Positions 4,393-30,223 of a stretch of 64,000 nucleotides of DNA are shown here, one piece after another (positions within the stretch are counted from its first letter, which is position 1; every line of letters starts with the position of its first letter). The notes below the pieces were generated by a model. The model saw only the letters and a program-made list of their open reading frames with translations, did no database searches and was not told the origin of the DNA. The DNA lies in the IMG/VR virus record IMGVR_UViG_3300029615_000411, positions 119,874 through 183,873 of that record. One strand, written 5' to 3'. Source of the DNA: a virus. Its lineage: Duplodnaviria; Heunggongvirae; Uroviricota; Caudoviricetes. The translations under genes were made by a program, and so were the position numbers.

Positions 4393-4406
4393 CCTATTTA
4401 CTCCTT

Positions 4407-13509: not shown

Positions 13510-13565
13510 GAAAATCTCCTTTATAAAAAGACCCCGGCAGACAGGTTGCCTACCGGGGCAGTATT

Positions 13566-13817
13566 TTAAACGAACAGGAACGGAACGTGAAGCAACAGAG
13601 CGTATGCCGCATCCATAATGCCAATAATAACGGCGGATACAGCACTCACAACAAGAACTGCTCCAGTTCGATGGAGCGTGTTGTGCATACTCGGCCAAGT
13701 CACATTTTTGGGTGCAACCAAATTGTGAAGCTTCTTAGGCGTGCTCTTGACGAAAGAAGGAATTGCCTTCACGAAATTCGCAATAGCCGTTCCTACCTTT
13801 TTCAGTTTATCTTTCAT
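13566..13817 (-). CDS. secE: SecE-like preprotein translocase subunit (accessory copy)
   Basis: KNVTWPSMHNTLHRTGAVLVVSAVSAVIIGIMDAAYALL parallels SecE KKVxWPxxKE...T.VV..V....D; ATGA overlap with upstream secG-like gene. Confidence 0.55.
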   Translation of the reverse strand: MKDKLKKVGTAIANFVKAIPSFVKSTPKKLHNLVAPKNVTWPSMHNTLHRTGAVLVVSAVSAVIIGIMDAAYALLLHVPFLFV

Positions 13818-14083: not shown

Positions 14084-15424
14084 TCAATTCAAGAAACCCT
14101 TGTGATGGCGAACCACCAAATGGCTGTTAAGAGAATCGATAACTTCAAGCGTAACACCTGTGACAATCAACAGACTGGTACCGCCAAAGTGCATGTTCAG
14201 ACCTGTAACCGCAGTTGCCAAGATAGGCACACATGCAATAACCGAAAGAACAAATGCTCCCGAACCGGCGAGAGAATGGCAAGCATTGCGCAAATAATCA
14301 CTGGTAGCTTTGCCTGCTCGAATACCGGGGATACTGCCGCCGTTCTTGCGCAGGTTGTTTGCCATTTCGATGGGGTCGAATGTGATGTCGATGTAGAATA
14401 AGTTGAATGCGAAAATCAGGGCTACATACGCAACATCATAAATCCAATTCCGCGAATTCCAAGATGCCAGCGCCATATACAGGCTGGGGTGCTTGTTGTA
14501 ATCGAGGAACATCGTCACGAGAGACGGCATACTGCAAATGGTGGACGAGAAAATAATAGGCATAACACCCGACATAATCAGTTTGATGGGGATATAACTG
14601 GACTGACCAGTGGATGCTTTGTTCCCCACATTTTTACCGGCATACTGAACAGGAACGCGGCGCTCTGCATCGCTTGCGAAAACGACATAGAAGGTGGCCG
14701 CCAAAACAAAGAGGATGACGCCGGGAATCATCAGATAATACCACCATCCATTTTCTTTGCCCATTGCAATAGAGTTCTGGAACAACGAGATGACAGCATC
14801 CCATCTGGAAATGATACCGATAAAGATGATAAGGGAAATACCGTTGCCAATACCTTTTTCGTCAATCAGCCATCCAAGCCAGATGACGATTTGAGAACCA
14901 GCAGTCAGAATGGCAATAACAGTAATGGCTTCCACGACCTGCGAAATGCCGGAAGTGTATTTCATCGCACCGTAGTTCTTCATAATAAAGAAGTACCCGA
15001 TAGCTGTTACGACCGCCAAACCACAACCAACATACTGCGTGATTTTATTGATTTGCTTCTGCCCGCCGATGTCCTTGCTGATTTCTTCCAGTTTCGGAAT
15101 CGCAACAGTCAAAAGCTGGATGATGATGCTTGCGTTGATGTATGCAGATACGCCAATCGCAAATACCGCACACTGAGAAAGTGCGCCACCGGAAACCAGA
15201 TTGTAATAATCCAGTACAGAGGTGCTTCCGAACATAGTCTGAAGCGCAGCGGTGTTTACGAACGGAATCGTAATACCGCAACCCAGACGATAAATCAGAA
15301 GACAAAGGATGGTGAAGAGAATCTTGTTGCGAACATCATCCACCATCAGCTTCTGGAAGATGGTGCTGTTCGAATAAGACTTTTTGAGTTTCGGCTTTTT
15401 CGCCGGATTTTTAATGTTGTCCAA
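14084..15424 (-). CDS. secY: SecY family protein-conducting channel, second non-ribosomal-context copy (SecY2-like)
   Basis: GITIPFV, SQIVIWLGWLIDEKGIGNGISLIIF, VPVQYAGK, YIPIKLIMSGVMPIIFSSTI, NLRKNGGSIPGIRAGKATSDYL, FGGTSLLIVTGVTLEV; TTG start with GGAAGGAG RBS; no rplO/adk/map neighbours. Confidence 0.85.
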   Translation of the reverse strand: MDNIKNPAKKPKLKKSYSNSTIFQKLMVDDVRNKILFTILCLLIYRLGCGITIPFVNTAALQTMFGSTSVLDYYNLVSGGALSQCAVFAIGVSAYINASIIIQLLTVAIPKLEEISKDIGGQKQINKITQYVGCGLAVVTAIGYFFIMKNYGAMKYTSGISQVVEAITVIAILTAGSQIVIWLGWLIDEKGIGNGISLIIFIGIISRWDAVISLFQNSIAMGKENGWWYYLMIPGVILFVLAATFYVVFASDAERRVPVQYAGKNVGNKASTGQSSYIPIKLIMSGVMPIIFSSTICSMPSLVTMFLDYNKHPSLYMALASWNSRNWIYDVAYVALIFAFNLFYIDITFDPIEMANNLRKNGGSIPGIRAGKATSDYLRNACHSLAGSGAFVLSVIACVPILATAVTGLNMHFGGTSLLIVTGVTLEVIDSLNSHLVVRHHKGFLN

Positions 15425-16444: not shown

Positions 16445-16960
16445 TTAGGCGTTGGGACCAGAAAAAGAATCGATAATTTCATCGATGTGGACGTTCAAGT
16501 CGGACTTGTCATCATCTTTCTTGGCGGGCTGTTTTACAGGAACAACGATATCAGGCTCATTCTTCTTTTCCTCCGCCGCCTTTTCTTCAACAGGCTTCTC
16601 TGCGGATTCATCCTTGGCCTCAGTGACCTCGGACGCGCTATCGGAATCCACCTTGCCGGATTCATCCTTATCGGCATCAGGATTCGCCTCGGTTGCCTTA
16701 TCAGTATCCTTTTTCGTCTCATCATGCTTGCGTTCTACGCGGATGACATGAACGGCAGCCACGGGCGCGTGATGAATATCATCGATGCGCTCATCACAAC
16801 CGCAGCACTCATCACAGTCATCACAATCGTCGTCATCATAAAGATAACCGTCATCCTCCAACTCTTTGATGACCTCGTTCTTCACATACTTGGTCGTGAG
16901 TTTCAGGGCAACGGCTGCAACAGTGGCGGCACCAATAACGGACAGAATGTTCTTCTTCAT
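16445..16960 (-). CDS. secreted or membrane-anchored acidic protein with poly-Asp/Cys cluster (DDDDCDDCDECCGCDE)
   Basis: N-terminal signal/TM MKKNILSVIGAATVAAVALKL; first gene after class II promoter P1. Confidence 0.5.
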   Translation of the reverse strand: MKKNILSVIGAATVAAVALKLTTKYVKNEVIKELEDDGYLYDDDDCDDCDECCGCDERIDDIHHAPVAAVHVIRVERKHDETKKDTDKATEANPDADKDESGKVDSDSASEVTEAKDESAEKPVEEKAAEEKKNEPDIVVPVKQPAKKDDDKSDLNVHIDEIIDSFSGPNA

Positions 16961-17004
16961 AAATTTCTCCTTTGACTAAAAAGCAATGTTTCGCTTGGAA
17001 TGTT

Positions 17005-17036
17005 TATATTATACCACATAAATATAATGTGGTCAA
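17005..17036 (-). promoter_or_regulatory. class II promoter P1 (TTGACC-17-TGgTATAATATA) for the secY-sortase operon
   Basis: Reverse complement TTGACCacattatatttatgtggTATAATata; spacer palindrome ACCACATaaatataaATGTGGT. Confidence 0.5.
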
Positions 17037-17048
17037 TACAAATTGCGA

Positions 17049-17080
17049 ATAAAAAAATGCCCCGCCGAAGCAGGGCATGT
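17049..17080 (-). terminator. intrinsic terminator after gene 17098..17751 (ATGCCC...GGGCAT TTTTTTT)
   Basis: aaaaaaatgccccgccgaagcagggcat read on minus strand. Confidence 0.55.
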
Positions 17081-17097
17081 GAAATATCAGAAGTGCC

Positions 17098-17751
17098 TTA
17101 TCGAATACCGTATCCCATATCTTGTCGCACGAGTTTTATTTCTGAAGTGTTTTTCAAACTATCGGGGAACATTTCTTTAGCGTAATCCTGATAGCGTTTC
17201 GTAACATACTTTACGCCGAGTTCTTCCGGTTTGATATCTGCTGCGGTTTTTCTGATACGTTGATTCGATGCGCGAGAAGAACATTTCTTGCATAAGCAAA
17301 GCGCGACATTAGAAATGCCTTCATTCCCGCAGACGGCGCATTTTGCATGCGTCTTATCTCTATCCCATTCCTTTATTTCTTTTCCGTTTTCCGGGTCTAT
17401 TACAAGGCGGTTGCGCTTACAGCGGCGCACATAGAACACGCTTTGGCAGCAGGCAACGCATAAGCCTAAATCTTTGCGGTAGTGAGAAGAGAGACCATCT
17501 GTGACTTCACCGCACAAAAGGCATTTATTTTGAGAAACAATATTCTTGTACTTATTAGCCTTGTTCTCTAATAGCTTTTTTATGATTTCACCGGTCTTAT
17601 CGGGTTCAGGAGGATACGCATCCCATCCGTTTACAGGAAAAAAGCTGGAAAAGTCGTTCCATTCATCATCAGAAAACGAACAGCCAACAGGTTTGAGTAT
17701 CTTAGGGAGTTTATTGGACCATACTTTTTCTGCATTAGACTTCTTCGGCAT
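17098..17751 (-). CDS. Cys-rich (multi CxxC) hypothetical protein
   Basis: AAGGAGGAG RBS before ATG 17751; CLLCGE, CVACC, CAVCGNEG, CLCKKC. Confidence 0.5.
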   Translation of the reverse strand: MPKKSNAEKVWSNKLPKILKPVGCSFSDDEWNDFSSFFPVNGWDAYPPEPDKTGEIIKKLLENKANKYKNIVSQNKCLLCGEVTDGLSSHYRKDLGLCVACCQSVFYVRRCKRNRLVIDPENGKEIKEWDRDKTHAKCAVCGNEGISNVALCLCKKCSSRASNQRIRKTAADIKPEELGVKYVTKRYQDYAKEMFPDSLKNTSEIKLVRQDMGYGIR

Positions 17752-17782: not shown

Positions 17783-19207
17783 TCAATATTCTGCCACGAT
17801 GTTATCATCGGGTTTCTTCTTTATCAAAGAGTCCCCAAATCGATTTACATGTTCTTTCGGCGGTTCAATGACCTCGATGTCGGTATCCTCCACTTTTTCG
17901 ATTTCGTCAGAGGAATCGTCGTCTTTTTCATTCTGAACCTTATCCGATGGATTGGTGATTTGTGCATCCTCTTTTGCAACATCTGAAAGCAAATCAAATG
18001 TCAACTGAGAATTTGAGGACGCTGGTTTCTTTTCTCTTTTCTTGGTTGTTTGGCGTTTTTTGGAAGTTCTTTTTGACTTTACAGGTTCATTGGAACCACC
18101 ATCGCTTGTTTTTGCACTTGCTGTGTTTGAATCAGCAACCGCATCCGCTGAAGCCTTATCCTTGTTTGTTTCTGTGACGGGTTCCTGAACCTTTTTGTTT
18201 TTTGATAAATCATCTTTGTCGGATTGTTTTGATTCCAAAGCAGAAGACTCTTGTGCGTTTGAACCTTGTTCTTCTTGCACAACAGATTCTTCCTTTACTG
18301 GAATCTTAGCAGTTCCCTTCTGCAAAAGACCGTCGATTGCTACAACGGCCTCAGACTTCTTTTCTTCGGACTCTGCCTTCTGTACTGCACGGCGAATCGC
18401 CTCGGTTTTTTCTTTCTTTTCTTTTTCTGCTGATGCGGTATTTTCGCTTTCCTTTATCTCAGCAGGCACATTCATGTCAGATTTCGAATTCCACCACTTC
18501 TCAATAGTAGTAATCGTTCTTTCTACTAATATTATACCACAAAATTTGTGGTTTGACAACTTACGGCTCGGCACAAAGCATACAATACCGCACAGAGAAA
18601 CAACCAGTAAAACAATAGCAAGTCCTGCATCAAAAATAAAACAGATAAACGACACCGGAATCAGCAGCTCGCAGATACCGCGCATGATAAATACTGTTTT
18701 ATCTCCTTGGTCTTTTCGGTTTTGCATAAAACTGTCTCTCCCCTTCTGCGGGTGATAAGACAAACCACTTGACAAGCCGTTTGTTGCCCAATCACAAGGT
18801 ATCTCGTAAGTCTTTTCTCCTAAGCTGTCTGTGTACTGAATTACAGCAATATCAAAATACTCACCATTCTTCTGTGATGCCAAGAATGCGCGTAAGAATT
18901 CATTTCCAACAGACCGCGCAGGAACAATAATCGTTTCGATGCCGTCAGAATCTTTTGCGGCAATATCTACTACATAGGTATCATCTTCACCGCGCCATAC
19001 GTTCTGCACAATACCGCGCACCAATATACCGCGCTTATGAACACGCCTTCCCATAAAAGTAAAGGAGTTTTCAGAATACCACGTGTTTACCATGCAATAC
19101 GCAGCAATAATAAGCAATGTAAGGTACTTAACATTTATGGAGATAATGCTTAAAGAAAAAATATACGGAACGAGCATCAGCAAGACGAATGATACAAAGC
19201 TATTCAC
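17783..19207 (-). CDS. membrane protein with long K/E/S-rich disordered C-terminal half; contains an internal consensus promoter
   Basis: GTG start overlapping upstream TGA; TM helices in N-terminal half; low-complexity acidic/lysine tail. Confidence 0.45.
18529..18560 (-). promoter_or_regulatory. class II promoter P2 inside the 474-aa ORF (TTGTCA-17-TATAAT, extended -10)
   Basis: Reverse complement TTGTCAaaccacaaattttgtggTATAATatt; perfect palindrome ACCACAAA/TTTGTGGT in spacer. Confidence 0.45.
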
Positions 19208-19878
19208 TTTGAATCACCGCCTTCGCCAAATCCGTCCAAAAAGACAAGATTTTCTTTTGTGTGTTTCTTTTTTTGTTCAATAACTTCTTTTTCAGCTTCT
19301 TGTTTGACTTTATCGTACGCTTCCAACGGGCTCATGGAAGGTACTGATTTCTGCGTATCAGCAGGGACAATAGTATCATCGTTTTTGACGGCTGTCGTTA
19401 CACGACTGCAGGTTACGAGATTTCTGTCATTAAACGCAGTTACGCCATCCTCATTTGATTTAAAAATAAAGTCATACATAGCACCAACGAAGAAAGAGTT
19501 TTTAACGTTTTTCTTTGATTCGTTGACGCTGAGGAAAAAATCGTATTTTCCGTTTTTGTCGATAAACTCTCCATCCTCATTGACAGGGATGATTCGATAG
19601 GTTGAAATCTGCTGGCGAATCATATTTTTGCTGGACTCATCGGATACAACAATTCCCTTAACAGTCTTATACCGTTCATTTTTTTCATCATTATGAATCT
19701 CATAAATTTGAAAAATAAAATAAGCGGCGCACATCAAGCCGATAAGAAGAATCTTCCACTCCTGCATTACAACAACACCGAAAATAGAAGCAATCAAGAA
19801 CAGAATAGCGATAAGCCCATTCTTCACATACATAGATGTGATAAGAGATTTGCAATCCGGATGATAAATCTTAGACAT
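19204..19878 (-). CDS. membrane protein (2 TM near N-terminus)
   Basis: ATG 19878 after AAGGCGGTG. Confidence 0.45.
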
Positions 19879-19879
19879 T

Positions 19880-20866
19880 TTATTCACCGCCTTCTACGTT
19901 AGAATCTTTATCTGCGCTGTTTGTCGTACTGGCAGACTGTAAAATGCTTGCACCCTGCTCATTCAGAACATCCTCGATTGTCTTGTCGCGTAGTTTAATG
20001 CTGGACAAGACGACATCGTAAGACTCCCCAGACGAAGTAGTTACCCGTGCGATATATTGAATGGTCGTATCCCCCGCAAGCAATGCGCCATCTATTGTTT
20101 GCTTCTGACGATTTCCGTCCTTATCTTCGGTCTCAACCACATACATATCCTGTGACGCTTTTTGTGCAGATACAGAAGACGTCATAACAATATCTCCGGC
20201 CTTCATATCAGAGGTCGCGAACTTGTTTACGATAGAACCTGTTCTATCCACAAAGAACACGGGAGTATCCTGCTGCATCTTCCCGTCGCCGTCTACGAAA
20301 TGCGAACCGCATAAGGATTCGTATTCGTTGACACTCAAAGTCTTATAGCTGAGTTCTGAATCCTCGATGGTATCCCCGGAAGGAATATCCACATTTACGA
20401 CAGCAACTTTATATTCTCCGGTAAGCTGTCCACTGATTTGGACCCAGTTTGTGTATACGAAGAAGCCAATAGCGATGGCGACAACGGCAACAATGAACAT
20501 TGCGATACCGATATTACGCTTGTTATTGTTTTTAATGATTTGTGCCTGTTCTAGGATTTCCTTACTGGCATGCTTAGTATCTTTAAGCGTCTGGTTTGCT
20601 TCATCCAGTGTATCGCTTGTCTTTGTAAGCACTTCGTAAGCTTTGGTCTCTCTATGGCCGACATTCACATTCAGCCCTTTTGCGCCATTGTTGTTGGCAG
20701 ACTTTGCGTTGTTGTATTCGGCGCGAAGCGTTTCCACAACGGAATCGTCAAGCGTCATCTGTTCCCCGTTAGGCAGAATTACCGTACCATCATCATAGAC
20801 ATCGAAAACACGTTCCTTGCCTTCATACATGGCGCGTACCTGACCGATAACATAATGTTCGTTCAT
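19880..20866 (-). CDS. bitopic membrane protein, possible SAF/CpaB-like extracytoplasmic domain
   Basis: AAGGGGTG RBS before ATG 20866; TM IGIAMFIVAVVAIAIGFFVY; VAVVNVDIPSGDTIEDSEL resembles SAF domain. Confidence 0.4.
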   Translation of the reverse strand: MNEHYVIGQVRAMYEGKERVFDVYDDGTVILPNGEQMTLDDSVVETLRAEYNNAKSANNNGAKGLNVNVGHRETKAYEVLTKTSDTLDEANQTLKDTKHASKEILEQAQIIKNNNKRNIGIAMFIVAVVAIAIGFFVYTNWVQISGQLTGEYKVAVVNVDIPSGDTIEDSELSYKTLSVNEYESLCGSHFVDGDGKMQQDTPVFFVDRTGSIVNKFATSDMKAGDIVMTSSVSAQKASQDMYVVETEDKDGNRQKQTIDGALLAGDTTIQYIARVTTSSGESYDVVLSSIKLRDKTIEDVLNEQGASILQSASTTNSADKDSNVEGGE

Positions 20867-20880
20867 GTTTATCACACCCC

Positions 20881-21375
20881 TTATCTCTTGTACTTTTCGA
20901 ACACCTTGCGCGAAGGAGCTCTCGGACCACACATTTTGCACTTTTTACTCTGCTCAACATAATCAATGAGCATCTGACGTTCCCATGCAAGGTATTCGTC
21001 CATATTTTTTTCTTTCCATGAATCGAATTTGCCGTATGAAACACCGAGATAACTGGCGAATATGCTGACAGCATTCAGCATATAATCATTCGGGATTACA
21101 ACCCTTTTCCCGTCCAGATTGTAAGCATGTCCCGTAGTGATTTTATTTCTTGTCTGTCCTATCTTCATTCGCCTCGTTTCTGTGTTCTTCTTTACCTGAG
21201 TTTCTCTTCTTAGGGTACTGCAGGACTTGCAATATTGAGTATTTTTGGCGGTAGAATAAAAAATCCTGCCGCATTCCTTGCATTTGCGTTCGTACGTTAT
21301 GGTTTTAGGAGTTGTACTTTGTTTTTGGGTTTCTGTATGGTTGCTGTTTTCAGAAGTACAATGATTCCGAGCCAT
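20881..21375 (-). CDS. zinc-finger (CxxC) hypothetical protein
   Basis: CKECGRIF...CKSC, CKMCGPR. Confidence 0.45.
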   Translation of the reverse strand: MARNHCTSENSNHTETQKQSTTPKTITYERKCKECGRIFYSTAKNTQYCKSCSTLRRETQVKKNTETRRMKIGQTRNKITTGHAYNLDGKRVVIPNDYMLNAVSIFASYLGVSYGKFDSWKEKNMDEYLAWERQMLIDYVEQSKKCKMCGPRAPSRKVFEKYKR

Positions 21376-21391
21376 AATCTGTACCTCTTAT

Positions 21392-22453
21392 TTAAACGCG
21401 AGCGTCAATCAGGCAATTCAGCAGCCCGTTCGCGTCACAGCCAAACAATAAGCATCCGAACACACCAATGGCATGTCCTTTTCTGGTAGAGAATGTTCCT
21501 GCCGTAACACCAAGATGCCCGGCAATCTGCTCATCTGTCCAGTTGTACTTTTTCCCCTCAATCATTGCAAGGATAACGTCATAATAACGTTGACCAAGCG
21601 GAAACTGTTTCATGATTTCGACAGCCCCTCGTATGAGTTTCACATACTCCACAATGAGATAGGCATCGCTTCTGTTTTTATCAGAAACTTTGATTTTACT
21701 CAAATCTTCGTACGAAGAAGACCCAAGCAGTTTCATGGCGGGGTCCTTTGACCGTGAGGCACGATACAGAATACGCGTGTATTCCGTAAGAAGCAGCGGA
21801 ACATTATGATAAAGGCTTGCTTCTTCTACCCCGTCCACATCACTGCTTGTCATCAGGATTTTATAATATTCCTTGATAACACTACCTGCTGTATTGTAAA
21901 CGGATTCAATGCACCGCTCGCAATACTTCATGATTTTGATGCGTCCATTCTTCGGAAGAACGGCGGGATTCAAAAAGCAATCAAACACCTCCCGCATGCT
22001 GGAACAATAATCGACTTCGTACAAGAGTTCTAACCGCGACTCCTCAATGGCGTCAAGAAGCATCTGACAACTTTCGAAGTATTCTTTGCGTTTCCTGAAA
22101 TGCAAAGACTCTTCCTCAATATTCGGAGCCAGCCAGCTCTGAATACGGCGCAGACGGGAAATGGCTTCGACATCGCACATCTCATCGTCGTGAACGTTTT
22201 CACAGTTCTGCATCATGACATCAAGGTCTTGTGCCTGCATCATCCATTTGAGTGCCGGATACAATATCATCAGAACAGCCGCTTCTTTCAGTTCCGGCCG
22301 CTCTTCCACAACACGGTTTACGCACTTTGTCAGCACATAAGAATTGGGGATGTCTCCGCCAAAACTTCTACGCAGAACAATGTTGTCCTGCATAATAGCA
22401 TCGAGCAATGCGTAAAGCTGCTGTTCTTGGGCTTTATTCAATGCTTCGGACAA
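21392..22453 (-). CDS. hypothetical regulator with sigma-70 region-4-like C-terminal HTH; TTG start
   Basis: WTDEQIAGHLGVTAGTFSTRKGHAI resembles sigma region 4.2; AAAGGAGGGAAGG RBS before TTG. Confidence 0.35.
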   Translation of the reverse strand: MSEALNKAQEQQLYALLDAIMQDNIVLRRSFGGDIPNSYVLTKCVNRVVEERPELKEAAVLMILYPALKWMMQAQDLDVMMQNCENVHDDEMCDVEAISRLRRIQSWLAPNIEEESLHFRKRKEYFESCQMLLDAIEESRLELLYEVDYCSSMREVFDCFLNPAVLPKNGRIKIMKYCERCIESVYNTAGSVIKEYYKILMTSSDVDGVEEASLYHNVPLLLTEYTRILYRASRSKDPAMKLLGSSSYEDLSKIKVSDKNRSDAYLIVEYVKLIRGAVEIMKQFPLGQRYYDVILAMIEGKKYNWTDEQIAGHLGVTAGTFSTRKGHAIGVFGCLLFGCDANGLLNCLIDARV

Positions 22454-22893
22454 TTTGCCTTCCCTCCTTTCGCAAGATTCGTTTCAATATGAATATGCGT
22501 GTTATCATGTACGGTTTCGGACAAAAGGCCACTATAATGGAACATGACCTTGTACTTCTTTGCGCTACAGGCATATTTGAGTCGCGCCCAAAGGTCTTTG
22601 TTATGACTGGGCTCAGTATCGCTGTCCTCTACGCCAAAAGAAGCACCAGTACGCGCAATCGCATTATCGCTGCTGAATACGACAATCTGAGACCCTGTTG
22701 GCAAACCGATGTTCTCGATAATGCGGCAGAGCTCTGCCAATTTCAGCCTTGTATAACCAATTGGAGTAGCCATAAAATAAGTATCCTTCTGTCTATCCGA
22801 CTTGGCGGAAGGATTTACGACAAAACTGTGAACGCACACCTCCCCATTCAGTTCCGGCGTTTTGACGATATCAAGATAAATAATAGCGGCCAT
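22438..22893 (-). CDS. hypothetical protein (151 aa)
   Basis: GGGGGAG RBS before ATG 22893. Confidence 0.45.
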   Translation of the reverse strand: MAAIIYLDIVKTPELNGEVCVHSFVVNPSAKSDRQKDTYFMATPIGYTRLKLAELCRIIENIGLPTGSQIVVFSSDNAIARTGASFGVEDSDTEPSHNKDLWARLKYACSAKKYKVMFHYSGLLSETVHDNTHIHIETNLAKGGKANCPKH

Positions 22894-22919
22894 AAATCGC
22901 TCCCCCTAATGTACAGTAA

Positions 22920-22950
22920 TTGACTTTTTCGCGTTTTTGTGGTATTATAT
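22920..22950 (+). promoter_or_regulatory. plus-strand class II-type promoter (TTGACT-17-TGgTATTATATA) for the 23048 regulator; divergent region with an 11-bp inverted repeat at about 22966-23012
   Basis: ttgactttttcgcgtttttgtggtattatata; TTATATTACCG...CGGTAATTATATA. Confidence 0.45.
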
Positions 22951-23047
22951 AAGTGCAGTAAAGGTATAATTTATATTACCGGTTACAAAAATTGTTGTTT
23001 TCGGTAATTATATAAACTTGTCTGTTAAACCAAGCAGGAGGGAAATT

Positions 23048-23710
23048 ATGAGTAACAATATCAACAACAACCACGAATCGGTAGAGAATATCTTCAATGC
23101 TTTCTTGATGGGAGGCAAAATGAACACTGCTTCCAAGCAAGAACGAGCAAAAATTGTAGATACCTTTATGGAACAGGCAAAATCTTGCTTTGTTGACACG
23201 GAGAATACCGTGAAATATCTAAATGTTCTGATGGAACGGACGAGACTCCGTTATGGGTTTACCGCTGATGAATTTGCAGCAATGTTGGGATACAGCAGCA
23301 CTGCCGCTTACAACAAGACATTCATGCAACCAAATGCAAATTTTGGAACTGTAGTATTTCCTTATGTGGTTCAGTTTTGCTATCTGTTTGGCTATAATTT
23401 GTCAATTCCTGATTCCGTGTCTGCTCCGCAAACAGTGGCAGACCTATACTCTTTGGAACTGGCTTCTTTTCTGATTTCTCTTGGCCCCGATGCAATGGAT
23501 GATATTTCAAGAACATTGGTCGGTGCCGAATACCTTGACCCGAATTTAAGAAAAACAAGTTCTCAAATACTTTCAAAGGCAAAGAAATACTTCTATGGTA
23601 ATGATGGTGAAGCGTTACCCAATGAAGTTCAGTACCGCAACAGATTAGATAACGCTGAGAATAAGATTAAGCGTCTCGATAAAATAGAGAAAGCCAATCA
23701 CGACAAATGA
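23048..23710 (+). CDS. HTH-containing putative transcriptional regulator (plus strand)
   Basis: AGGAGGG RBS 6 nt before ATG 23048; GFTADEFAAMLGYSSTAAYNKT helix-turn-helix-like; own TTGACT-17-TATTAT promoter. Confidence 0.55.
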   Translation: MSNNINNNHESVENIFNAFLMGGKMNTASKQERAKIVDTFMEQAKSCFVDTENTVKYLNVLMERTRLRYGFTADEFAAMLGYSSTAAYNKTFMQPNANFGTVVFPYVVQFCYLFGYNLSIPDSVSAPQTVADLYSLELASFLISLGPDAMDDISRTLVGAEYLDPNLRKTSSQILSKAKKYFYGNDGEALPNEVQYRNRLDNAENKIKRLDKIEKANHDK

Positions 23711-24175
23711 TTAGCCGCCAAACATATCGGCTAACTGTAATGCAAGCATCGCTTCTTCTGAAATAGGAGGCGGTGCTTCTTCTGTTTTTGGAGTTGTGTT
23801 GATGGTTTGTGTGTCTGTAATGTTTTGGGGGGAGTAATTTGAAGCTGGCGCAGCTACCGCAATCCCGTTTTTCTGAATGCTGCTTGTCACTGCATCTACA
23901 ATCTGAGGGATACAGCTTCTGATTTCTTCTGCTATTGTGTTTTGCAGTTCCTCTTTTAAGATGGACTGCGCTTCTTGCATCTCATGTTGTTTTGTAGCCT
24001 TGTCGATTATAGCATTTACAACCGCATCGGTTTTTCCGCCGCGTTGCAAACTGTTCAGATAATCATATACAAGTACATGATTGTCTTTGCTTAAATCAAA
24101 AACAAGTGTGGTTCGTACCGTCGTGCCAACGGTCTCTTTTTCTGTTTCATTCTTTTTGGGACGTCCACGCGGCAT
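23711..24175 (-). CDS. parR: ParR-like small DNA-binding partition adaptor (ribbon-helix-helix-like N-terminus)
   Basis: MPRGRPKK basic N-terminus then beta-alpha-alpha pattern; immediately downstream of the ParM-like gene. Confidence 0.4.
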   Translation of the reverse strand: MPRGRPKKNETEKETVGTTVRTTLVFDLSKDNHVLVYDYLNSLQRGGKTDAVVNAIIDKATKQHEMQEAQSILKEELQNTIAEEIRSCIPQIVDAVTSSIQKNGIAVAAPASNYSPQNITDTQTINTTPKTEEAPPPISEEAMLALQLADMFGG

Positions 24176-24208
24176 TCAGTGCTCACCACGCTTTCGAAAA
24201 CGGTGCTC

Positions 24209-25168
24209 TTAAATTTCACCGCTCATGGTCAGCTTTGCACGAGCCATGATTTCATATCCTTTTGCATTTGCGGTTACATCCGTCAAGAAGAAAAGGTTCT
24301 TGGTGTCAATGGCTCGCTCGATGCTTTCGCGCATCATAGCAGAACCACCGCCCATAAAGATGAAATAGGATGTTTTGAAATCGTCCTTGATTTTTTCGGA
24401 AATCGTACGAATCAATGCTGTTGCATAATTGTCTGCGGTTTCCTTGGCAATTTTCACGGCGTTTTCATCGACCAGCATGTTGTTGTTCCCTGCAAGGATT
24501 GCCTCAGCCATGTAGTCATCGACCGACAAGGAACAATGGACACGCAGCTCGCTCTCGACAGTGCTCAGGAGTTCAATGACTCCACGGTCATAGCTTTCGC
24601 AGAAAGAAAGGTCCGGAGCATAAGTGTTGCCACGACCAGAGAAACGAATCACATCCGTGGTATACCCGCCGATGTCTACGACATAAGAACGGGGATAGCG
24701 CTTGATTTCCTTCTGAATCTCGCTTGCTGCCGTAATAGAAAAGCCCTGAGGATAGACAAAGACATGCTTGACAGTAATCTCAAACGGGATATCTTTGTAC
24801 ATGAAATTGATGAGTTTCCCGCTTTTGCCGAAATACTCATCATACTTCGCTTTCAGGGACATATGCTGCGGGGGCAAGCCCATCGCGAGGCATACATCGT
24901 ATTTGTAGAATTTCTGATTGGGATACTTCTTTATAAGGTTCTTTGCTACGGCAATCAGCGTCAGCAAAAAGTAAGTGTCATCCTTCGTCTTATCCTGCTG
25001 ATAAGGCGTACGGCTGTCATTGAGGGAATAATACTTCCCCATGTAGCACATCGTCTCTCCCTTGATAGCCGGTTCAGTCGTACCATGACGAACAAGACCA
25101 GTGGGAAACGGCTCACAGCCAGGCGTCTTCATTGCCTTGTTTCCGGTATCTACTCCAATAATCTCCAT
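24209..25168 (-). CDS. parM: actin-like ATPase, ParM/StbA/Alp family plasmid segregation protein
   Basis: MEIIGVDTGNKAMK (phosphate-1), VVDIGGYTTDV (phosphate-2), IFMGGGSAMM (adenosine) motifs; GGAGGA RBS before ATG 25168. Confidence 0.65.
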   Translation of the reverse strand: MEIIGVDTGNKAMKTPGCEPFPTGLVRHGTTEPAIKGETMCYMGKYYSLNDSRTPYQQDKTKDDTYFLLTLIAVAKNLIKKYPNQKFYKYDVCLAMGLPPQHMSLKAKYDEYFGKSGKLINFMYKDIPFEITVKHVFVYPQGFSITAASEIQKEIKRYPRSYVVDIGGYTTDVIRFSGRGNTYAPDLSFCESYDRGVIELLSTVESELRVHCSLSVDDYMAEAILAGNNNMLVDENAVKIAKETADNYATALIRTISEKIKDDFKTSYFIFMGGGSAMMRESIERAIDTKNLFFLTDVTANAKGYEIMARAKLTMSGEI

Positions 25169-25264
25169 AAAAAATCCTCCGAACGAGTCGCAATATAGTT
25201 GAAAGTACGAATTTTGGGATACTCTGCGTGATAAAATATAAGTGTCTACCAGATAACAATGGGA

Positions 25265-25395
25265 CTCACTGACTGATGCATAGCAGTTGTTAAAACGGAA
25301 AGAACAACTAATATACAACTACCTGTTGTTATCATGATACCACACATGCAGTTGTCCAGCAACGAACTTTTGTTCGCATAGACAACAAAAAAGAA
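25265..25395. promoter_or_regulatory. iteron cluster (at least 7 copies of CAGTTGT/ACAACTG-like 7-8-mers, both orientations) between the ParM-like gene and the XRE gene; candidate parC centromere or operator
   Basis: agCAGTTGTt, gAACAACTa, tACAACTAc, cTGTTGTTa, gCAGTTGTc, tTGTTCGc, GACAACAa within about 120 bp. Confidence 0.4.
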
Positions 25396-25406
25396 AGGAG
25401 TTATTT

Positions 25407-25637
25407 ATGCCATCCACCTTTGATACCATGGTAGGAAAGCGAATCAAAAAGCAACGAATGGAAATCAATTACAGCCAAGAACAGTTGGCGGCAAGCACGA
25501 ATTGTTCCTATCGCTGCATCCAAAAATGGGAGTCAGGAAAGACGATGCCGCGAGCACAAATGCTATGCAATTTAGCAAAAGCCTTACATGTTTCGTCTGA
25601 CTGGCTGCTTGGTATTTCCAATGACAGGAACGGTTAA
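25407..25637 (+). CDS. XRE-family HTH transcriptional regulator (Cro/CI-like)
   Basis: GKRIKKQRMEINYSQEQLAASTNCSYRCIQKWESGKTMPRAQMLCNLAKALHVSSDWLLG; AAAGGAG RBS. Confidence 0.7.
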   Translation: MPSTFDTMVGKRIKKQRMEINYSQEQLAASTNCSYRCIQKWESGKTMPRAQMLCNLAKALHVSSDWLLGISNDRNG

Positions 25638-26983
25638 TTGTTTACCGGAAAAACCAGCGTCTTAGCGATTGTCTCAGCAAGGTCTTGAAACTCGCTCTCA
25701 ACGTGCTCCGGGATAAAACCGATAGCAGCTTCCCTCTTCAAAACGTCGATAGCCTTCGTAAACTGAGAACGGGTGTACGAATACCCCCAACGAAGACCAT
25801 CGGCGTTTTGCTGTAGAATTTCGCAAAGCGGGTCCAGTACAACAAACATGATTTCCTTCACGTTGTTTTCCGTGCAGATACGCATAGCCTCGATAGCTCC
25901 GGCAAAGCCGTACTCCCATTCATCGCTCGTGTGTCCACACATACCGTGGATGATTCGCTTGTCTCCCATATCTACCACGATACCGTAAGCGCCTTCACGC
26001 GTCTCGTCGTTGTAAACGCAAGTGAGGAATACATTCGTACGGAATGCATTCGAAGCCTTCATGGCGGAATCATATTTTGAACCACGGTCGCTCTTCATCG
26101 GAACAATGCCGGTAATAGAAAGCTTGTCTGTCTTAGGCTTCTCCATCTGCATACCGGACTGTCCACGAGCCATGATTGCACTATTCCCTTTCTGAGGAGA
26201 TTCTGTGCGCTGTGCAGGCTGTGAAACAGGCTTCTGAACGGGTTTCGCCTCTGACTTCATTTCCGGCGCAGAAACCGTCTTATCCGTCACGGGCTTTTTA
26301 TCCTTAACCGGAATGACAGGAGGCTTGGGCTGTTCCGAAATCTGTTCGGAAACAGAAGGCTTTGCAATCACTGGAGCAACCTTCTTCTGTTCCGGTTCGG
26401 CATCTTTCGGCCCTTGTTCGCTTTCTTCCGTTTTGTTCAGAACCGTTTCAAAAACATGGAGCGCTTCCTTCGTTTTAGACTCGGTAGCCTCATTCTTGGA
26501 TTCGTCCTTTACAGGAAGAGATTCTTCTTTTACGGGTTCATCCTTTGTTGCAGGCTTGACGACGGGATTTGATTGCGGTTTCGGCTCTTTCTTAGCGGTG
26601 ACACCGAAAAGATTTGCGAGACGTTCTTCCTCTTTCTTCTTCCTTTCAGCTTCCTGTTTCTTGCGTTCTTCCGCAAGCTTACGTTCCTGCTCTGCCTTTT
26701 CGGCTTCTTCCTTTTCAATTTGCTTGCGCATCTTTGCGCGGCGAGCCTCCTCAATGCGCTTTGCTTCTTCTTCTTCTTTCTTTTTCTTTTCGAGATACTC
26801 AGAGTGAATCGGACGAGATATCGTGGGAGCTGCCTGCAGAGGCTTCTTTGCTTCCACCTGTTCCCCCTTATTCTCCTCCTTCTTGAGTTTTTCCTTTTCT
26901 GCGGCATCAACTTTGCGCTGTGTCATATTGTTGAACAGCTTATTCAACGCCTCAGACTCGGCGATATAAGACTCCTTACTCAT
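25634..26983 (-). CDS. K/E-rich coiled-coil protein with C-terminal RNase-H-like domain
   Basis: C-terminal VFLTCVYNDETREGAYGIVVDMGDKRIIHGMCGHTSDEWEYGFAGAIEAMRIC...IMFVVLD resembles viral-type RNase H fold. Confidence 0.4.
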   Translation of the reverse strand: MSKESYIAESEALNKLFNNMTQRKVDAAEKEKLKKEENKGEQVEAKKPLQAAPTISRPIHSEYLEKKKKEEEEAKRIEEARRAKMRKQIEKEEAEKAEQERKLAEERKKQEAERKKKEEERLANLFGVTAKKEPKPQSNPVVKPATKDEPVKEESLPVKDESKNEATESKTKEALHVFETVLNKTEESEQGPKDAEPEQKKVAPVIAKPSVSEQISEQPKPPVIPVKDKKPVTDKTVSAPEMKSEAKPVQKPVSQPAQRTESPQKGNSAIMARGQSGMQMEKPKTDKLSITGIVPMKSDRGSKYDSAMKASNAFRTNVFLTCVYNDETREGAYGIVVDMGDKRIIHGMCGHTSDEWEYGFAGAIEAMRICTENNVKEIMFVVLDPLCEILQQNADGLRWGYSYTRSQFTKAIDVLKREAAIGFIPEHVESEFQDLAETIAKTLVFPVNN

Positions 26984-28646
26984 TACCGGTTGCCTCCTTT
27001 TTCGTGATGAGTGTATAGATTAACTCCTCTGTAAGAGGAATAGATGTAACATTGGGCAGATGCTCGAATCGAATACCACGAGCCTTACAAATCTGCTTCG
27101 CCTTTCCGTACAAAGAATGACTCATCTGTGTAACACGGAAAATAACAATGTCACTGTTTGCGATAAGCGCATCGCAGGTAGCCAGATTACACTGGTCAAC
27201 ATACGAGATGTCCGGCTGTGCATTACGAAGCATGTTGACAAAGTTCTGCTGTCCACCGCAGAAAACAATTTTCTTGTTCTTTGCCATCTGATTCAGCTCT
27301 TTATGATAGTCTATGACTTCTGTTTCCTGTTCACAGATACCTGCATCGGAATCATCAAAGTCATCAAACTCGGAAGTTTCTGGCCGAAGCTGAATGAGCT
27401 TTCGCTCTGCGTTCGCCAACAGCTTTTCCAGTTCATGGATTCTACTCTCGGCATCATCGTTCTTTTTGCGCAAAGCCGTTTCTCGTTTCATGGATGTGGC
27501 CTTGAAATCGTAAAGTTCTTTTTTGACCTTTTCCAGTTTGGCGTTTGTGCTTGCCTCAGCCACTTCCTTTTTGACTTCGGAAGCCTTTTGCTTTAGCTGC
27601 TCCTCGTATTTTTTGTTTTCGAGTTCGCGTTTTCTCAGCTTTCTCTGGTTATAGATTGTAGTGCTCTTTTCGAGAATTGCATTCTTTTGCTGCTTTTCTC
27701 CAAAAGAAGAAACAACATATTGCCAGACAAGAGCAATATAAGCATCACGAATTCCTCTGTCGATAGACGCTCTATGTACCATCTTTCTCGGGTCTACTGT
27801 GCAGCTCATTGCCATAATTGCGCAAATTCGCTCTTTCATTTTCTCCGTGATGGGGAACTTATAAAGCGAATGATGATTGACACCGATACTGGTGGAAATC
27901 CGGAAAGAACTCATACACATATCGATACGCGGACGACTGGACATATTTAACGGAGGCGCTGGAGCAACGCCATTCTTGACGGCTTGCGTAAAGAAATCCG
28001 CCATTTCCGGCATATCCCAGCTGTTACAGTCACTGTCGTATCGCAGCGCATAAATCATATCGCCGAGTGTGGCGACATCCCAGATATCGGACACTGCTTC
28101 TTTCACAAAGGCCATCATCGCTTCCGTGCCGCTGTCAGAGAAGGAGTTATCAAAATCTTTGACGATTTTCCTGATACTGTCTCCGTCCTTCACGGATGCT
28201 GCCTGAAAAATGTCCAATGCAGCCTTAAATCCACGCGTAATGGTTCTCTTACTCAAATCATTCTCGTGGAACATCTTTTCGAATAGCTTATCCGATTCGC
28301 CGTCGATTTTCTTTACAATCTGGTACAGCGTGGGATTCGTCTTATCGGCTTTGATGACCAGATACGAAAGGATGTCAAGTGCCGTATCTGTCAATCCATC
28401 ATTCCCTGCAAGAATGATGGTAAGGTCATTTTCGCCTTTAAGGATTTTCCTTTTCATCTTCTGGCAATCGTTGTCTGACTGAGCCAGTTCAATGATTTCC
28501 TTCCTCAAAGGGAAGCACTCGATTAGAAAAGCAATCCGCTGATACACAAAATCAACGGTGCTGATTTTAAATTCTCGCGGGAAATCCCTGATTTCAGCAA
28601 TATCATCAGGAATCACAAAGCCGTTAATCACATTCTGTGTAACCAA
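26976..28646 (-). CDS. hypothetical protein with central coiled coil (556 aa), TTG start
   Basis: AAGGAG RBS 8 nt before TTG 28646. Confidence 0.45.
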   Translation of the reverse strand: MVTQNVINGFVIPDDIAEIRDFPREFKISTVDFVYQRIAFLIECFPLRKEIIELAQSDNDCQKMKRKILKGENDLTIILAGNDGLTDTALDILSYLVIKADKTNPTLYQIVKKIDGESDKLFEKMFHENDLSKRTITRGFKAALDIFQAASVKDGDSIRKIVKDFDNSFSDSGTEAMMAFVKEAVSDIWDVATLGDMIYALRYDSDCNSWDMPEMADFFTQAVKNGVAPAPPLNMSSRPRIDMCMSSFRISTSIGVNHHSLYKFPITEKMKERICAIMAMSCTVDPRKMVHRASIDRGIRDAYIALVWQYVVSSFGEKQQKNAILEKSTTIYNQRKLRKRELENKKYEEQLKQKASEVKKEVAEASTNAKLEKVKKELYDFKATSMKRETALRKKNDDAESRIHELEKLLANAERKLIQLRPETSEFDDFDDSDAGICEQETEVIDYHKELNQMAKNKKIVFCGGQQNFVNMLRNAQPDISYVDQCNLATCDALIANSDIVIFRVTQMSHSLYGKAKQICKARGIRFEHLPNVTSIPLTEELIYTLITKKEATGNE

Positions 28647-28670
28647 GTTATCAACTCCTTCACCGGCAGT

Positions 28671-28952
28671 TTAAGTTCGATGAACTTTGTTTTTCATACA
28701 ACAAGGAAGGCAACAGACACCGTATGTGTTATTGCCCCACTCGCAATGCGCTCGACTACAAATAACACCGCGTTGGGCTTTGACGGTTTTCTTCTCTTCT
28801 TTCTTCTTTTCGATTTCGCCTTCCCGAAGAATGGTCTTTACTTCCTTTGTTGTGATACCATACTTTCTGGCAATCTGAACGACCGTTTTCCCTCCGTTGA
28901 ATTCCTCTACAGCCTGTTCATGTGTTACGCCACAGCCAAATTTTCCGTACAT
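28671..28952 (-). CDS. small HTH DNA-binding protein with C-terminal Cys cluster
   Basis: TVVQIARKYGITTKEVKTILR HTH; CSRAHCEW...CCLPCC. Confidence 0.45.
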   Translation of the reverse strand: MYGKFGCGVTHEQAVEEFNGGKTVVQIARKYGITTKEVKTILREGEIEKKKEEKKTVKAQRGVICSRAHCEWGNNTYGVCCLPCCMKNKVHRT

Positions 28953-28989
28953 GATTTAACCCTCACTCTAAATACGGCAAAAAGGCCAT

Positions 28990-29032
28990 GCGCTCTATTT
29001 CCTATAAGAAATGGCGGTATGGCCTGTTTGCC
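28990..29032 (-). terminator. terminator after Dam methyltransferase gene (GGCCAT...ATGGCC TTTTTG)
   Basis: 6-bp stem, long loop, T5. Confidence 0.4.
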
Positions 29033-29036
29033 TCGC

Positions 29037-29555
29037 TTAAATAATCGAGAACTTACGCTTTTTGTTTGTGAACTCAACAATCATAGAAGGACGACGACTG
29101 CCGATAGTCTCTTTCCGATTCTCAGAGTCAATGAACAGATAAGGGTTCGTCATCTTGATTCTGGCAGGCAGAAACTTTACCCTTACTCCCTGCTGTCCAT
29201 AAATGTATCTCTGGAACCAGTCAGAGTCCGTAGAAACGGGTAAAAGCATGACGACCGTGGTATTCTTTTTCCTTGACTCCTCGTACGCCTTGCGCACCCA
29301 CAACTTAAAGGACTTATGCCCTGTCGGGGGATTGCAAAATACTGTTTCACCTTTCCAGTCCTGCAAGAGACCATCGACACGCTCCGTGTAATATTTCTTG
29401 CATTTATGATTTTTGTCCGATGCAGCCGCATCCAGAGTGAAACCGTATTCCTTGTTCAGGTCATCGAAAAGCCCCTGAGGCGTCTCCCATTCCTGTTTGT
29501 GAGTATTCTTGACTGCATAAGTCTTATCCGTTGTTTTCGTTTCTACGCTGTTCAT
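29037..29555 (-). CDS. phage-type DNA N6-adenine methyltransferase (Dam family), orphan
   Basis: WETPQGLFDDLNKEYGFTLDAAAS...YYTERVDGLLQDWKGETVFCNPPTG matches phage Dam signature; motif IV is NPPT rather than NPPY/DPPY. Confidence 0.7.
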   Translation of the reverse strand: MNSVETKTTDKTYAVKNTHKQEWETPQGLFDDLNKEYGFTLDAAASDKNHKCKKYYTERVDGLLQDWKGETVFCNPPTGHKSFKLWVRKAYEESRKKNTTVVMLLPVSTDSDWFQRYIYGQQGVRVKFLPARIKMTNPYLFIDSENRKETIGSRRPSMIVEFTNKKRKFSII

Positions 29556-29584
29556 GGCAATCTTCCCCTTACGATTGATGATGT

Positions 29585-30223
29585 TTATTTCGTGGTTTTT
29601 GGGCCTTTTAAAAGCCCCTTGGTTCTGAGAATGTTCCGCACATATGCAAGGCGTCTTCTGCCAAAGCCATGTGCATTCTGCTTACTTTTGTTTTCGGCAT
29701 AAGCCATATCAGAATACTTGATGCCGTCTTTGTAATGCTTCAAGAGATAATCTGTAACAGTCGTATCTCTGATTGCAAGAATAGCATCGACAATTCTCGC
29801 TTCTTCTTTTTTCGAATAAGGATAATCGTCGATGTTATACCTGACCCCGTCCAGCCCGCAAATGATATTCACGGGCCAACCCTTGCGGAAGGCAATGTTT
29901 GCTTCGCGGATATTCCGTTCTGTCATGACATCACCGGTCTTATCTCTTCTGTGCCTGTACAATGTTCGCTGCGCACAGGCTTTGCATACACCCCGCGCAT
30001 ATATGATAGAAAGCCTATTACAAATAGGGCATTCTTCGATTCGGACATGTTTTCCGGACTTAACGGTTTGATAATCCAATCCGTTGATGTAAGTCTTGTT
30101 GTTAAAGGTGATTGTTTCTGCACCCTTATATTCAGGGAACTCATCTCCTGTATAAATTCCCTTCATCTCTGCGGGGAGAGTATCTGCGTCGCTTTGAAGT
30201 ACGTAGAATTTCTTTTTGCTCAT
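29585..30223 (-). CDS. hypothetical protein with CxxC zinc ribbon (212 aa)
   Basis: CPICNRL...CKAC. Confidence 0.45.
   Translation of the reverse strand: MSKKKFYVLQSDADTLPAEMKGIYTGDEFPEYKGAETITFNNKTYINGLDYQTVKSGKHVRIEECPICNRLSIIYARGVCKACAQRTLYRHRRDKTGDVMTERNIREANIAFRKGWPVNIICGLDGVRYNIDDYPYSKKEEARIVDAILAIRDTTVTDYLLKHYKDGIKYSDMAYAENKSKQNAHGFGRRRLAYVRNILRTKGLLKGPKTTK

Follow-up and report, generated by a model that had tools for sequence, protein, structure and literature searches.

A probable ParM/ParR partition operon with a proposed composite control region on a Hodor-like megaplasmid of the human gut

Among the closest known counterparts of the locus considered here are the type II (ParMRC) partition systems of pSK41 from Staphylococcus aureus and of the pCW3 family from Clostridium perfringens, in which parM and then parR lie behind one promoter, parM encodes an actin-fold ATPase, the cis-acting sites overlap the promoter upstream of parM, and the ParR adaptor joins an N-terminal ribbon-helix-helix (RHH) domain to a C-terminal ParM-binding region. 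These sites are 20-bp repeats in pSK41 and four 17-bp direct repeats in pCW3, and every characterised ParR binds direct repeats, not dyads (PMC9426499). We analysed a comparable locus at positions 23711-25640 of a 64,000-nucleotide (nt) stretch of DNA (positions 119,874 to 183,873 of IMG/VR virus record IMGVR_UViG_3300029615_000411; this whole stretch is called the window, and all coordinates are its own unless another lineage is named), where a parM-like gene, a parR-like gene and a divergent gene for an XRE-type regulator are found and where parM and xre are separated by an intergenic region of 238 bp. The locus shares with pSK41 and pCW3 the gene order, the actin-fold ATPase, a putative C-terminal ParM-binding region of ParR and the overlap of candidate cis sites with the promoter, and with pSK41 ParR the RHH domain (as profile similarity). 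It differs from both in that its ParM is only ~15-25% identical to theirs, that no array of direct repeats was found near parMR in the window and the conserved cis elements are two different inverted palindromes, that the region includes a divergent XRE gene and a putative LexA box, and that the predicted parM leader, at ~158 nt, is unusually long.

A second point of comparison is provided by the Hodors (Yuan et al., bioRxiv 2026, PMC12934698), which that preprint describes as circular conjugative megaplasmids of the human gut with Rep_3, ParA, ParB and a type IV secretion system (T4SS) that has a MOBH-like relaxase, marked by Sec genes together with a trigger factor module, two giant MBG/S-layer-domain proteins and a size above 200 kb. 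The preprint sets these elements apart from phage-plasmids, blames their viral classification on pipeline error, and confines TerL to embedded prophages in a minority of genomes (PMC12934698). Already known, then, are the Hodor class and the presence on it of ParM/StbA, which the preprint lists as a partition marker only; its text, supplements aside, makes no mention of a ParR adaptor, an XRE gene, a LexA box or operator dyads (PMC12934698). Two things are added here: the adaptor that partners the Hodor ParM, a ParR-like protein in which an RHH domain can be recognised and whose putative ParM-binding tail is conserved, and a conserved promoter architecture that places a putative host LexA box and phage-type XRE operators on the partition operon. 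We consider it reasonably probable that the locus is a type II ParM/ParR partition operon in a Hodor megaplasmid backbone, and that the region upstream of it is primarily a composite parMR/xre control region, not a classical iteron centromere. The partition mechanism itself is not new.

The ParM-like ATPase, its adaptor and their replicon

The three genes, and the hairpin at the end of the operon, are as follows.
24209-25168, minus strand: parM-like gene, 319 aa, ATG start, actin-fold segregation ATPase
23711-24175, minus strand: parR-like gene, 154 aa, starting 33 nt after parM
25407-25637, plus strand: XRE/Cro-type helix-turn-helix (HTH) gene, 76 aa, divergent from parM, no peptidase domain
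23692-23716, minus strand: terminator-like hairpin where the ends of parR and a 220-aa plus-strand gene converge, from the consensus scan only

A preliminary description of this DNA, made from its letters, had proposed an actin-like ATPase with all three nucleotide-binding motifs, followed by a ParR-like gene, and both proposals held. The ParM-like protein, whose GGAGG ribosome-binding site (RBS) lies at 25176-25180, 7 nt before the ATG, exceeds the curated cut-offs of three Alp/ParM-type Pfam models, namely MreB-like_C (48.4 bits; cut-off 27.8), ALP_N (31.2; 26.3) and Alp7A_like_C (25.3; 22), and a sequence search of the PDB ranked ParM of plasmid R1 first. In a family alignment of 48 sequences the phosphate-1 (D7-x-G9...K14), phosphate-2 (D165-I-G-G-x-T170) and adenosine (G273-G-G) motifs are invariant. 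An AlphaFold 2 (AF2) model built from this alignment reached a predicted confidence (pLDDT) of 92.5, and in its Foldseek ranking MreB comes only after Ta0583, R1 ParM, CorM, pSK41 ParM, Alp7A, Clostridium ParMs, Alp12 and AlfA (E 1e-17 to 1e-9). As expected of a type II (ParMRC) locus, sequence and predicted fold thus place the 319-aa protein among the actin-fold ATPases of the ParM/Alp clade, and its nucleotide-binding motifs are intact. Identity as PRTRC protein D was rejected, the NCBIfam match scoring 37.6 bits against a cut-off of 214.8.

The partner protein has no Pfam and no NCBIfam match. A profile of eight ParR-like N-terminal domains nevertheless found as its top PDB match 2q2k_A, the RHH domain of pSK41 ParR (E = 0.0035; 2Q2K is described in PMC3074162), with the runner-up 100-fold worse. 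A co-oriented small gene lies directly downstream of parM in every ParM relative that we fetched, and the syntenic partners share one architecture: a basic N-terminal arm (often PRGRPKK), a beta-strand R-x-T/S-x-x-F, two helices with the motif VYDYL..LPYG.KTD.IV.AI, a long helix, a low-complexity linker and a conserved amphipathic C-terminal motif, [DE][DE]AM.AL.LA[DE]MF. The protein of the window follows this plan, with the AT-hook-like PRGRPKK, the RHH-type N-terminal domain, the long helix, a disordered linker and the C-terminal amphipathic helix EEAMLALQLADMF. A single-sequence AF2 model of low confidence (pLDDT 62) places helices at 33-45, 49-103 and 140-152, and the beta-strand is absent from this monomer model. 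The conserved C-terminal motif and the predicted helix 140-152 are consistent with binding to ParM filament ends. The expectation of a small basic RHH-like protein therefore stood as to the RHH-like domain, whereas basicity applies to residues 1-62 (isoelectric point 9.45) and the whole protein is acidic (4.9). Taken together, these comparisons give moderate support for the 154-aa protein as a ParR-type adaptor with an N-terminal RHH domain. Word-seeded searches for homologues returned only copies of at least 88% identity, and an exhaustive phmmer search of 1.8 billion representatives returned about four distant clusters at 50% identity, all of the same plasmid lineage; they offered no relative that lacks XRE but keeps the DNA-reading residues, by which the binder of the pentamers could have been decided.

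The ParM protein occurs without change in contigs of 354,221, 355,152, 349,731 and 343,059 bp and in an IMG/VR contig of 345,980 bp, where, in the orientation of ParM, it lies ~131, 149, 296, 182 and 208 kb, respectively, from the contig start. The nearly identical lengths and differing break points fit circular permutations of one ~350-kb molecule. The sequences thus point to an extrachromosomal, putatively low-copy replicon as the carrier of ParMR, and the earlier suggestion that the secretion and giant-protein module rides on an autonomous replicon is borne out by the permuted 343-355-kb contigs and by a gene content like that of Hodors. The identical ParM was found in 2745 blocks of the assembly collection, the matches listed all coming from human-gut samples, and the differences between strains in parM DNA fall at steps of 3 nt and are therefore synonymous.

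The Hodor-like genes of the window include the following.
12346-13698, minus strand: trigger-factor-like gene (FKBP_C and Trigger_C)
14084-15424, minus strand: SecY paralogue, full length, 291 bits
31224-32759, minus strand: flotillin/Band_7 gene
35992-44007, minus strand: giant open reading frame (ORF), 2671 aa, with five MBG_2 (YGX) domains
44372-63937, minus strand: adjacent giant ORF, 6521 aa, its start within ~60 nt of the window end

By gene combination (Sec genes, trigger factor and giant proteins), size, habitat and filing as a virus, the element matches the Hodor megaplasmids as the preprint presents them: human gut, ~350 kb, SecY, trigger factor, MBG giants and a viral label in databases (PMC12934698). 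Against this assignment it must be said that it rests on matching features and the preprint, with no matched sequence identifier, and that the Rep_3, ParA/B and T4SS genes would lie outside the window. The largest ORF here, at 6521 aa, is also shorter than the 7309-7704 aa given for Hodors (PMC12934698), and could represent a variant, a frameshift or a split gene. The preprint further sets a class B sortase downstream of trigger factor in Hodors (PMC12934698); the 323-aa gene downstream of trigger factor in the window (11363-12334) gave no Pfam match at E <= 0.01, and no SecG, SecE or sortase B was identified by Pfam among the ORFs scanned. A Sec and giant-surface-protein module on a self-segregating replicon is the conclusion reached independently in the preprint (PMC12934698).

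ParMR lies in a block that is syntenic with a deeply diverged lineage (L016, ParM ~44-45% identical). Beyond it, the nearest plasmid-borne ParMs (~31% identity) are on Oscillospiraceae and Lachnospiraceae plasmids, megablast of window positions 20000-30000 against PLSDB plasmids and INPHARED phages gave no near-identical DNA, and the element was not found in 185,579 GTDB representative genomes, where ParM relatives reached only 29-31% identity (an Oscillospiraceae metagenome-assembled genome (MAG) and a Mobilitalea MAG). The host group in our best explanation is human-gut Bacillota. One candidate for a second Hodor ParM (P0114, ParM 36% identical, longest contig 355,056 bp) was rejected, the three of its loci that were retrieved, on 39-45-kb contigs, belonging to an unrelated integrase-rich element. 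As a separate observation, chimeras in Logan join ParM fragments of 98-99% identity to a Dam domain (PF05869; P0022), to a ParB-like nuclease (PF02195; P0063) and to a partner without a Pfam match (P0068); such joins could be artefacts of assembly or else variants of the plasmid that have been rearranged.

The region between parM and xre

Elements recognised in the intergenic region are listed below.
25363-25376: palindrome P1, CGAACTTTTGTTCG, 14 bp, CGAAC-N4-GTTCG, abutting the parM -35 and ending 30 nt before the xre start codon
25334-25362, minus strand: predicted parM promoter, -35 TTGCTG (25362-25357), 17-nt spacer, extended -10 TGgTATCAT (25342-25334)
25315-25329: perfect dyad P2, ACAAC-N5-GTTGT, over the predicted parM start, candidate operator
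25286-25386: pentamer field, with extra half-sites GTTGT 25286-25290, ACAAC 25304-25308, GTTGT 25351-25355 and ACAAC 25382-25386

The intergenic region contains six exact GTTGT/ACAAC pentamers (at 25286, 25304, 25315, 25325, 25351 and 25382) against 0.87 expected, and four copies of AGTTGT against 0.16 expected. Pentamer density upstream of parM is the peak for the whole 64 kb, and no other 130-bp stretch reaches six. The cluster of at least seven CAGTTGT/ACAACTG-like repeats that had been described from the letters is therefore real, with the correction that six copies are strict and two are exact CAGTTGT, and that the copy read as TTGTTCG belongs to the separate palindrome P1. Its description as an iteron field did not survive, as the units are not tandem and direct and form instead one perfect inverted dyad and four orphan or degenerate half-sites. 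The orphans number four against ~0.85 expected (p about 0.01) and their positions are not kept in other lineages; one of them, GTTGT 25351-25355, is the right half of a degenerate dyad (25341-25355) inside the parM promoter spacer.

The region was compared between the window and the lineages L014, L015, L025/L026 and L022, whose ParMs are 79, 69, 69 and 63% identical to that of the window. A MAFFT alignment of four intergenic regions gave a mean column identity of 56%, with the invariant columns confined to three blocks, which correspond to P1, the extended -10 and the P2 dyad; the fifth lineage agrees. Neither the position nor the sequence of the extended -10, TGnTATnAT, varies between the five lineages, and the third block starts 4-9 nt past it. 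In total the five lineages carry seven perfect and two imperfect dyads in which the half-sites are invariant and the 5-nt spacers vary, even between L025 and the near-identical L026. Likewise, the intergenic single-nucleotide polymorphisms that distinguish ten window-type strains fall in the P2 spacer (25321, 25324) and in flanking bases, with none in the pentamer cores. P2 is the only exact ACAAC-N5-GTTGT in the 64 kb. P1 is likewise the sole GAAC-N4-GTTC within the 64 kb and is perfect in the window, L014 and L015.

From the predicted promoter, transcription of parM would start near 25327 and leave a leader of ~158 nt; an Rfam scan of 22800-25800 found no match, so that this long leader is not a known RNA element. 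The consensus promoter scan had chosen a weaker pair of hexamers overlapping the predicted promoter. For xre no promoter could be placed convincingly. A candidate is a face-to-face extended -10, TGTTATCAT, on the plus strand at 25327-25335, which is not clearly conserved. We also observed that either strand of the palindrome TGTTATCATGATACCA (25327-25342) can be read as an extended -10, the sequence being TGgTATCAT in the direction of parM and TGtTATCAT in that of xre; overlapping face-to-face parM and xre promoters are a possibility raised by this sequence, in an arrangement not clearly kept in other lineages. Elsewhere, a strong promoter-like TTGACT-N17-TGTGGTATTAT stands at 22918-22948 on the plus strand upstream of the 220-aa gene, and its sharing of the TGTGGTAT.AT extended -10 style with the predicted parM promoter suggests a plasmid-wide promoter type.

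Candidate binders of the upstream sites and alternative readings

The divergently transcribed regulator, whose orientation the preliminary description had given correctly, scores 51 bits against Pfam HTH_3 (cut-off 23) and is a member of that family; in NCBIfam it comes closest to RstR- and DicA-type repressors, without reaching the cut-off of either. The gene is kept, often uncalled, in the lineages with ParM 79, 69, 69 and 63% identical, and is missing from L016. In the window-type lineages XRE, P1 and P2 occur together. L016 retains ParM and ParR without XRE, P1, P2 or the upstream intergenic region, its parM beginning 18 nt after the preceding gene, and because of this the palindromes appear to travel with the XRE cassette and not with ParR.

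Searching IMG/VR for pairs of ACAAC-N5-GTTGT dyads with 3-9 nt between them gave 39 loci, of which ~15 are intergenic with an XRE-type HTH ORF within ~500 bp (13 within 300 bp), the ORFs flanking or overlapping the dyads, whereas the background HTH density of the same loci predicts ~2. The other matches are coding or non-coding tandem repeats. Pfam identified CI-like (Phage_CI_repr/HTH_3) or Cro/YdaS-like neighbours in seven of the tandem-dyad loci, divergent where both flanks were checked, and the tandem dyads of the viral contigs overlap the -35 (GTTGTTGACA) and the -10. One CI-like protein of these loci is homologous to the XRE of the window (tblastn 4.6e-5). Because CI/Cro immunity regions of many unrelated phage contigs carry this tandem dyad too, P2 is more likely an operator for XRE than parC; by this analogy we favour XRE as the binder of P2, with ParR as the alternative. 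The resemblance is to CI/Cro immunity operators of temperate phages (434-type ACAA-N6-TTGT logic), the window having the same dyad over a predicted promoter beside a Cro-sized XRE gene; unlike those phage regions, the apparent target here is a partition operon instead of lytic genes, the window lineage has one perfect dyad, and the single small XRE has neither a CI partner nor a peptidase domain. Bound to P2 over the parM start, XRE would most likely repress parMR, and it would probably also occupy the degenerate dyad at 25341-25355 in the promoter spacer.

P1 agrees exactly with the LexA (Cheo/SOS) box of Gram-positive bacteria, for which the Bacillus consensus is CGAAC(n)4GTTCG and that of Clostridia GAACnnnnGTT[C/T] (PMC4551915, PMC4234289), and from this match we infer LexA binding at P1. 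A scan for tandem CGAAC-N4-GTTCG returned at least 120 loci. Host LexA at this site, against the parM -35 and ~30 nt before xre, would bring one or both promoters under SOS control, and because the 76-aa XRE has no autocleavage or peptidase domain, the box would be the route by which DNA damage enters the circuit. Similar arrangements are known from dinBox1 of GIL01 and from RstR and LexA of CTXphi, where a CGAAC-N4-GTTCG box stands in a promoter region together with a small repressor encoded by the element (PMC4551915), and the best NCBIfam similarity of XRE, to the RstR type, parallels CTXphi even with its score below the cut-off. Unlike in GIL01 and CTXphi, the apparent target here is a plasmid partition operon, the regulator of that operon, or both, and two of the five lineages have a degraded form of the putative box. 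Our first model, in which P1 was the XRE site and P2 the ParR site, was revised once the viral contigs had been scanned and P1 had been recognised as a LexA box. Thus, where the sites had been described as parC and/or an operator of the XRE regulator, the operator half is the better supported, because the LexA box was identified and the dyad is of CI/Cro operator type, and the parC half is not favoured.

Several observations weigh against this assignment of the sites. P1 has one half-site altered in L025 and both altered symmetrically in L022 (CGAAT-N4-ATTCG), and because of this degradation SOS control would not be universal in the family; moreover the box matches a Bacillus/Clostridia consensus that may not be that of the host. 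The viral-contig scan is biased to phage immunity regions and shows the usual user of the dyad, not its binder here, and the xre promoter lacks a convincing placement. The multiplicity of the sites, with four orphan pentamers in the window, a 10-11 bp phasing of three sites and a pair of in-phase dyads in each of L015 and L025, also fits a ParR array better than a simple operator. Half-sites that are inverted and separated by one turn of the helix can also be bound by RHH tetramers, Arc being an example.

It is accordingly possible, though doubtful, that the GTTGT/ACAAC field is itself parC, with RHH dimers of ParR binding each pentamer, one dimer to a helical turn and in either orientation, much as omega binds its heptads, to build the segrosome and auto-repress parMR, and XRE acting elsewhere or on its own promoter. 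The field occupies the usual position of parC, exactly upstream of parM and overlapping its promoter (PMC9426499), its six pentamers are the densest cluster in the window, and the sites at 25304, 25315 and 25325, spaced by 11 and 10 bp, therefore lie on one helix face, as all four half-sites of L015 and L025 are in phase. Orphan half-sites would be unexpected if the binder were an HTH dimer, the lineages that keep the half-sites also keep R-x-T/S-x-x-F, the beta-strand motif of ParR, and no other repeat array was found near parMR within the window. Against this reading, one perfect dyad alone is positionally conserved while the extra sites vary by lineage, the identical tandem dyad is typical of CI/Cro operators beside XRE-type genes, the dyads track the XRE cassette and are lacking from the ~44-45% lineage that has ParMR, and the ParRs characterised so far read direct repeats (PMC9426499).

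An analogy under which ParR could read the pentamers is offered by other RHH proteins. The omega heptads of pSM19035 and the operators of Arc and Mnt consist of short units that can be read direct or inverted and are spaced by no more than one helical turn. Omega heptads are contiguous and present in 7-10 copies, whereas the pentamers here are dispersed, with 4-6 per locus.

Other places for a centromere were also considered. The intergenic region 22894-23047 and its equivalents contain no repeats common across lineages. In L016, at least four CACTATATATTGTGG-like copies in both orientations occupy positions 6232-6389 of a 450-bp intergenic region ~800 bp downstream of parR; they have no counterpart in the window and could be the centromere of that lineage or another set of operators. 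Weak 12-bp direct repeats just upstream of the RBS in some lineages (AGGAC...AAAC twice in L022) are unconvincing. Distant plasmid ParMR loci (Vescimonas, Subdoligranulum and an Oscillospiraceae MAG) share a short upstream region with a TTGTTG -35-like element and two 11-bp direct repeats just before the RBS, a more classical parC-like arrangement, at these positions.
L009, 5960-5990; L023, ~2440-2470; L010, ~2820-2860: direct repeats of distant loci, e.g. GTATAAACACA/GTATAAGCACA
The target of ParR in the window may be the same pentamers or short lineage-specific repeats in the ~158-nt leader.

If the locus is a type II partition operon under a composite control region, as we favour, its working can be sketched from the characterised families. 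ParR dimers would bind plasmid DNA through the N-terminal RHH domain, probably helped by the AT-hook-like arm; the C-terminal amphipathic helix would capture the growing ends of ParM-ATP filaments, and these filaments would push sister plasmids apart. Only tentatively do we suggest the further step in which LexA and the Cro-like XRE jointly gate parMR and ParR may compete for the pentamers, so that operator and centromere would be one and the same, built of inverted dyads and responsive to damage. If this is true, the locus would be an unusual type II system, with inverted pentamer dyads in place of direct iterons as its centromere and with an expression that changes upon DNA damage. That a partition operon should be wired to SOS and XRE is a curiosity of modest weight, though one open to testing; if verified, it would be a concrete, testable case in which the segregation of a plasmid, here one very prevalent in the gut, responds to stress, and the operators, promoter and ParMR cassette would be usable for vectors in hard-to-culture gut Clostridia.

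It is quite improbable that ParM and ParR have been repurposed as a cytoskeletal or positioning system of the kind of cyanobacterial CorMR, for example to organise the Sec, flotillin and giant-surface-protein module, while ParAB partitions the plasmid. Such a role would fit the location of ParMR, which has the SecY/trigger-factor block on one side and the genes for flotillin and the giant proteins on the other and is not next to the replication genes, as well as the failure to find a convincing centromere; Hodors also carry ParA and ParB near Rep_3 according to the preprint (PMC12934698), CorM is among the close structural matches of the ParM here, and repurposing has precedent (10.1101/2025.06.27.661541). 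CorR, however, uses a membrane-binding amphipathic helix instead (10.1101/2025.06.27.661541), and the ParR of the window retains a basic RHH-type domain akin to that of pSK41 ParR and an AT-hook-like arm; because this DNA-binding domain is retained, a CorMR-like role is unlikely. An extrachromosomal, putatively low-copy element is moreover the exact setting for ParMRC. Two partition systems on one large plasmid are common, as in pB171 and R27.

That the element is a jumbo phage or phage-plasmid whose prophage state ParMR maintains is very improbable, since the filing of its 345,980-bp and 88,901-bp contigs as viral genomes in IMG/VR, the ParM relatives in human faecal 'Bacteriophage sp.' records and the phage-like operator dyads are opposed by the finding of no phage structural gene among the ORFs scanned and by the T4SS, Rep_3 replicon, circular plasmid genomes and TerL confined to embedded prophages given in the Hodor study (PMC12934698). 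The label phage-plasmid, offered in the preliminary description beside that of plasmid, is dropped for the same element on the distinction drawn by the Hodor authors (PMC12934698), even though IMG/VR files it as viral.

Neighbouring genes and other observations

Further genes of the window are these.
3628-4413, minus strand: accessory gene, radical-SAM/4Fe-4S protein
5390-6187, minus strand: accessory gene, DUF1281_C (Api92-like) protein
8385-9095, minus strand: accessory gene, PIN7/NYN nuclease-like
29037-29555, minus strand: accessory gene, Dam-family methyltransferase, 52% identical in L016

Upstream of the partition region, a conserved gene at 25634-26983 on the minus strand encodes a protein of 449 aa that contains a long low-complexity stretch rich in K and E; its conserved C-terminal domain is kept in L016 too, where parM comes directly after the gene. 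Also conserved is 26976-28646 on the same strand, which encodes a 556-aa protein with a weak C-terminal match to DUF2325. In L002 and L008 a 367-aa IS605-family TnpB (OrfB_IS605/Cas12f-like) occupies 18203-19306 between genes of 217 and 171 aa; because it is missing from the window (equivalent position ~16960-17098) and from other samples, it is an insertion polymorphism of the plasmid population. Opposite the giant genes run long stop-free ORFs on the plus strand, of 3981 aa at 47435-59380 and of 1404 aa at 38377-42591, in a region whose GC content is ~50% against 43-46% elsewhere in the window; these antisense frames are presumably a by-product of the repetitive, biased codon composition of the giant genes.

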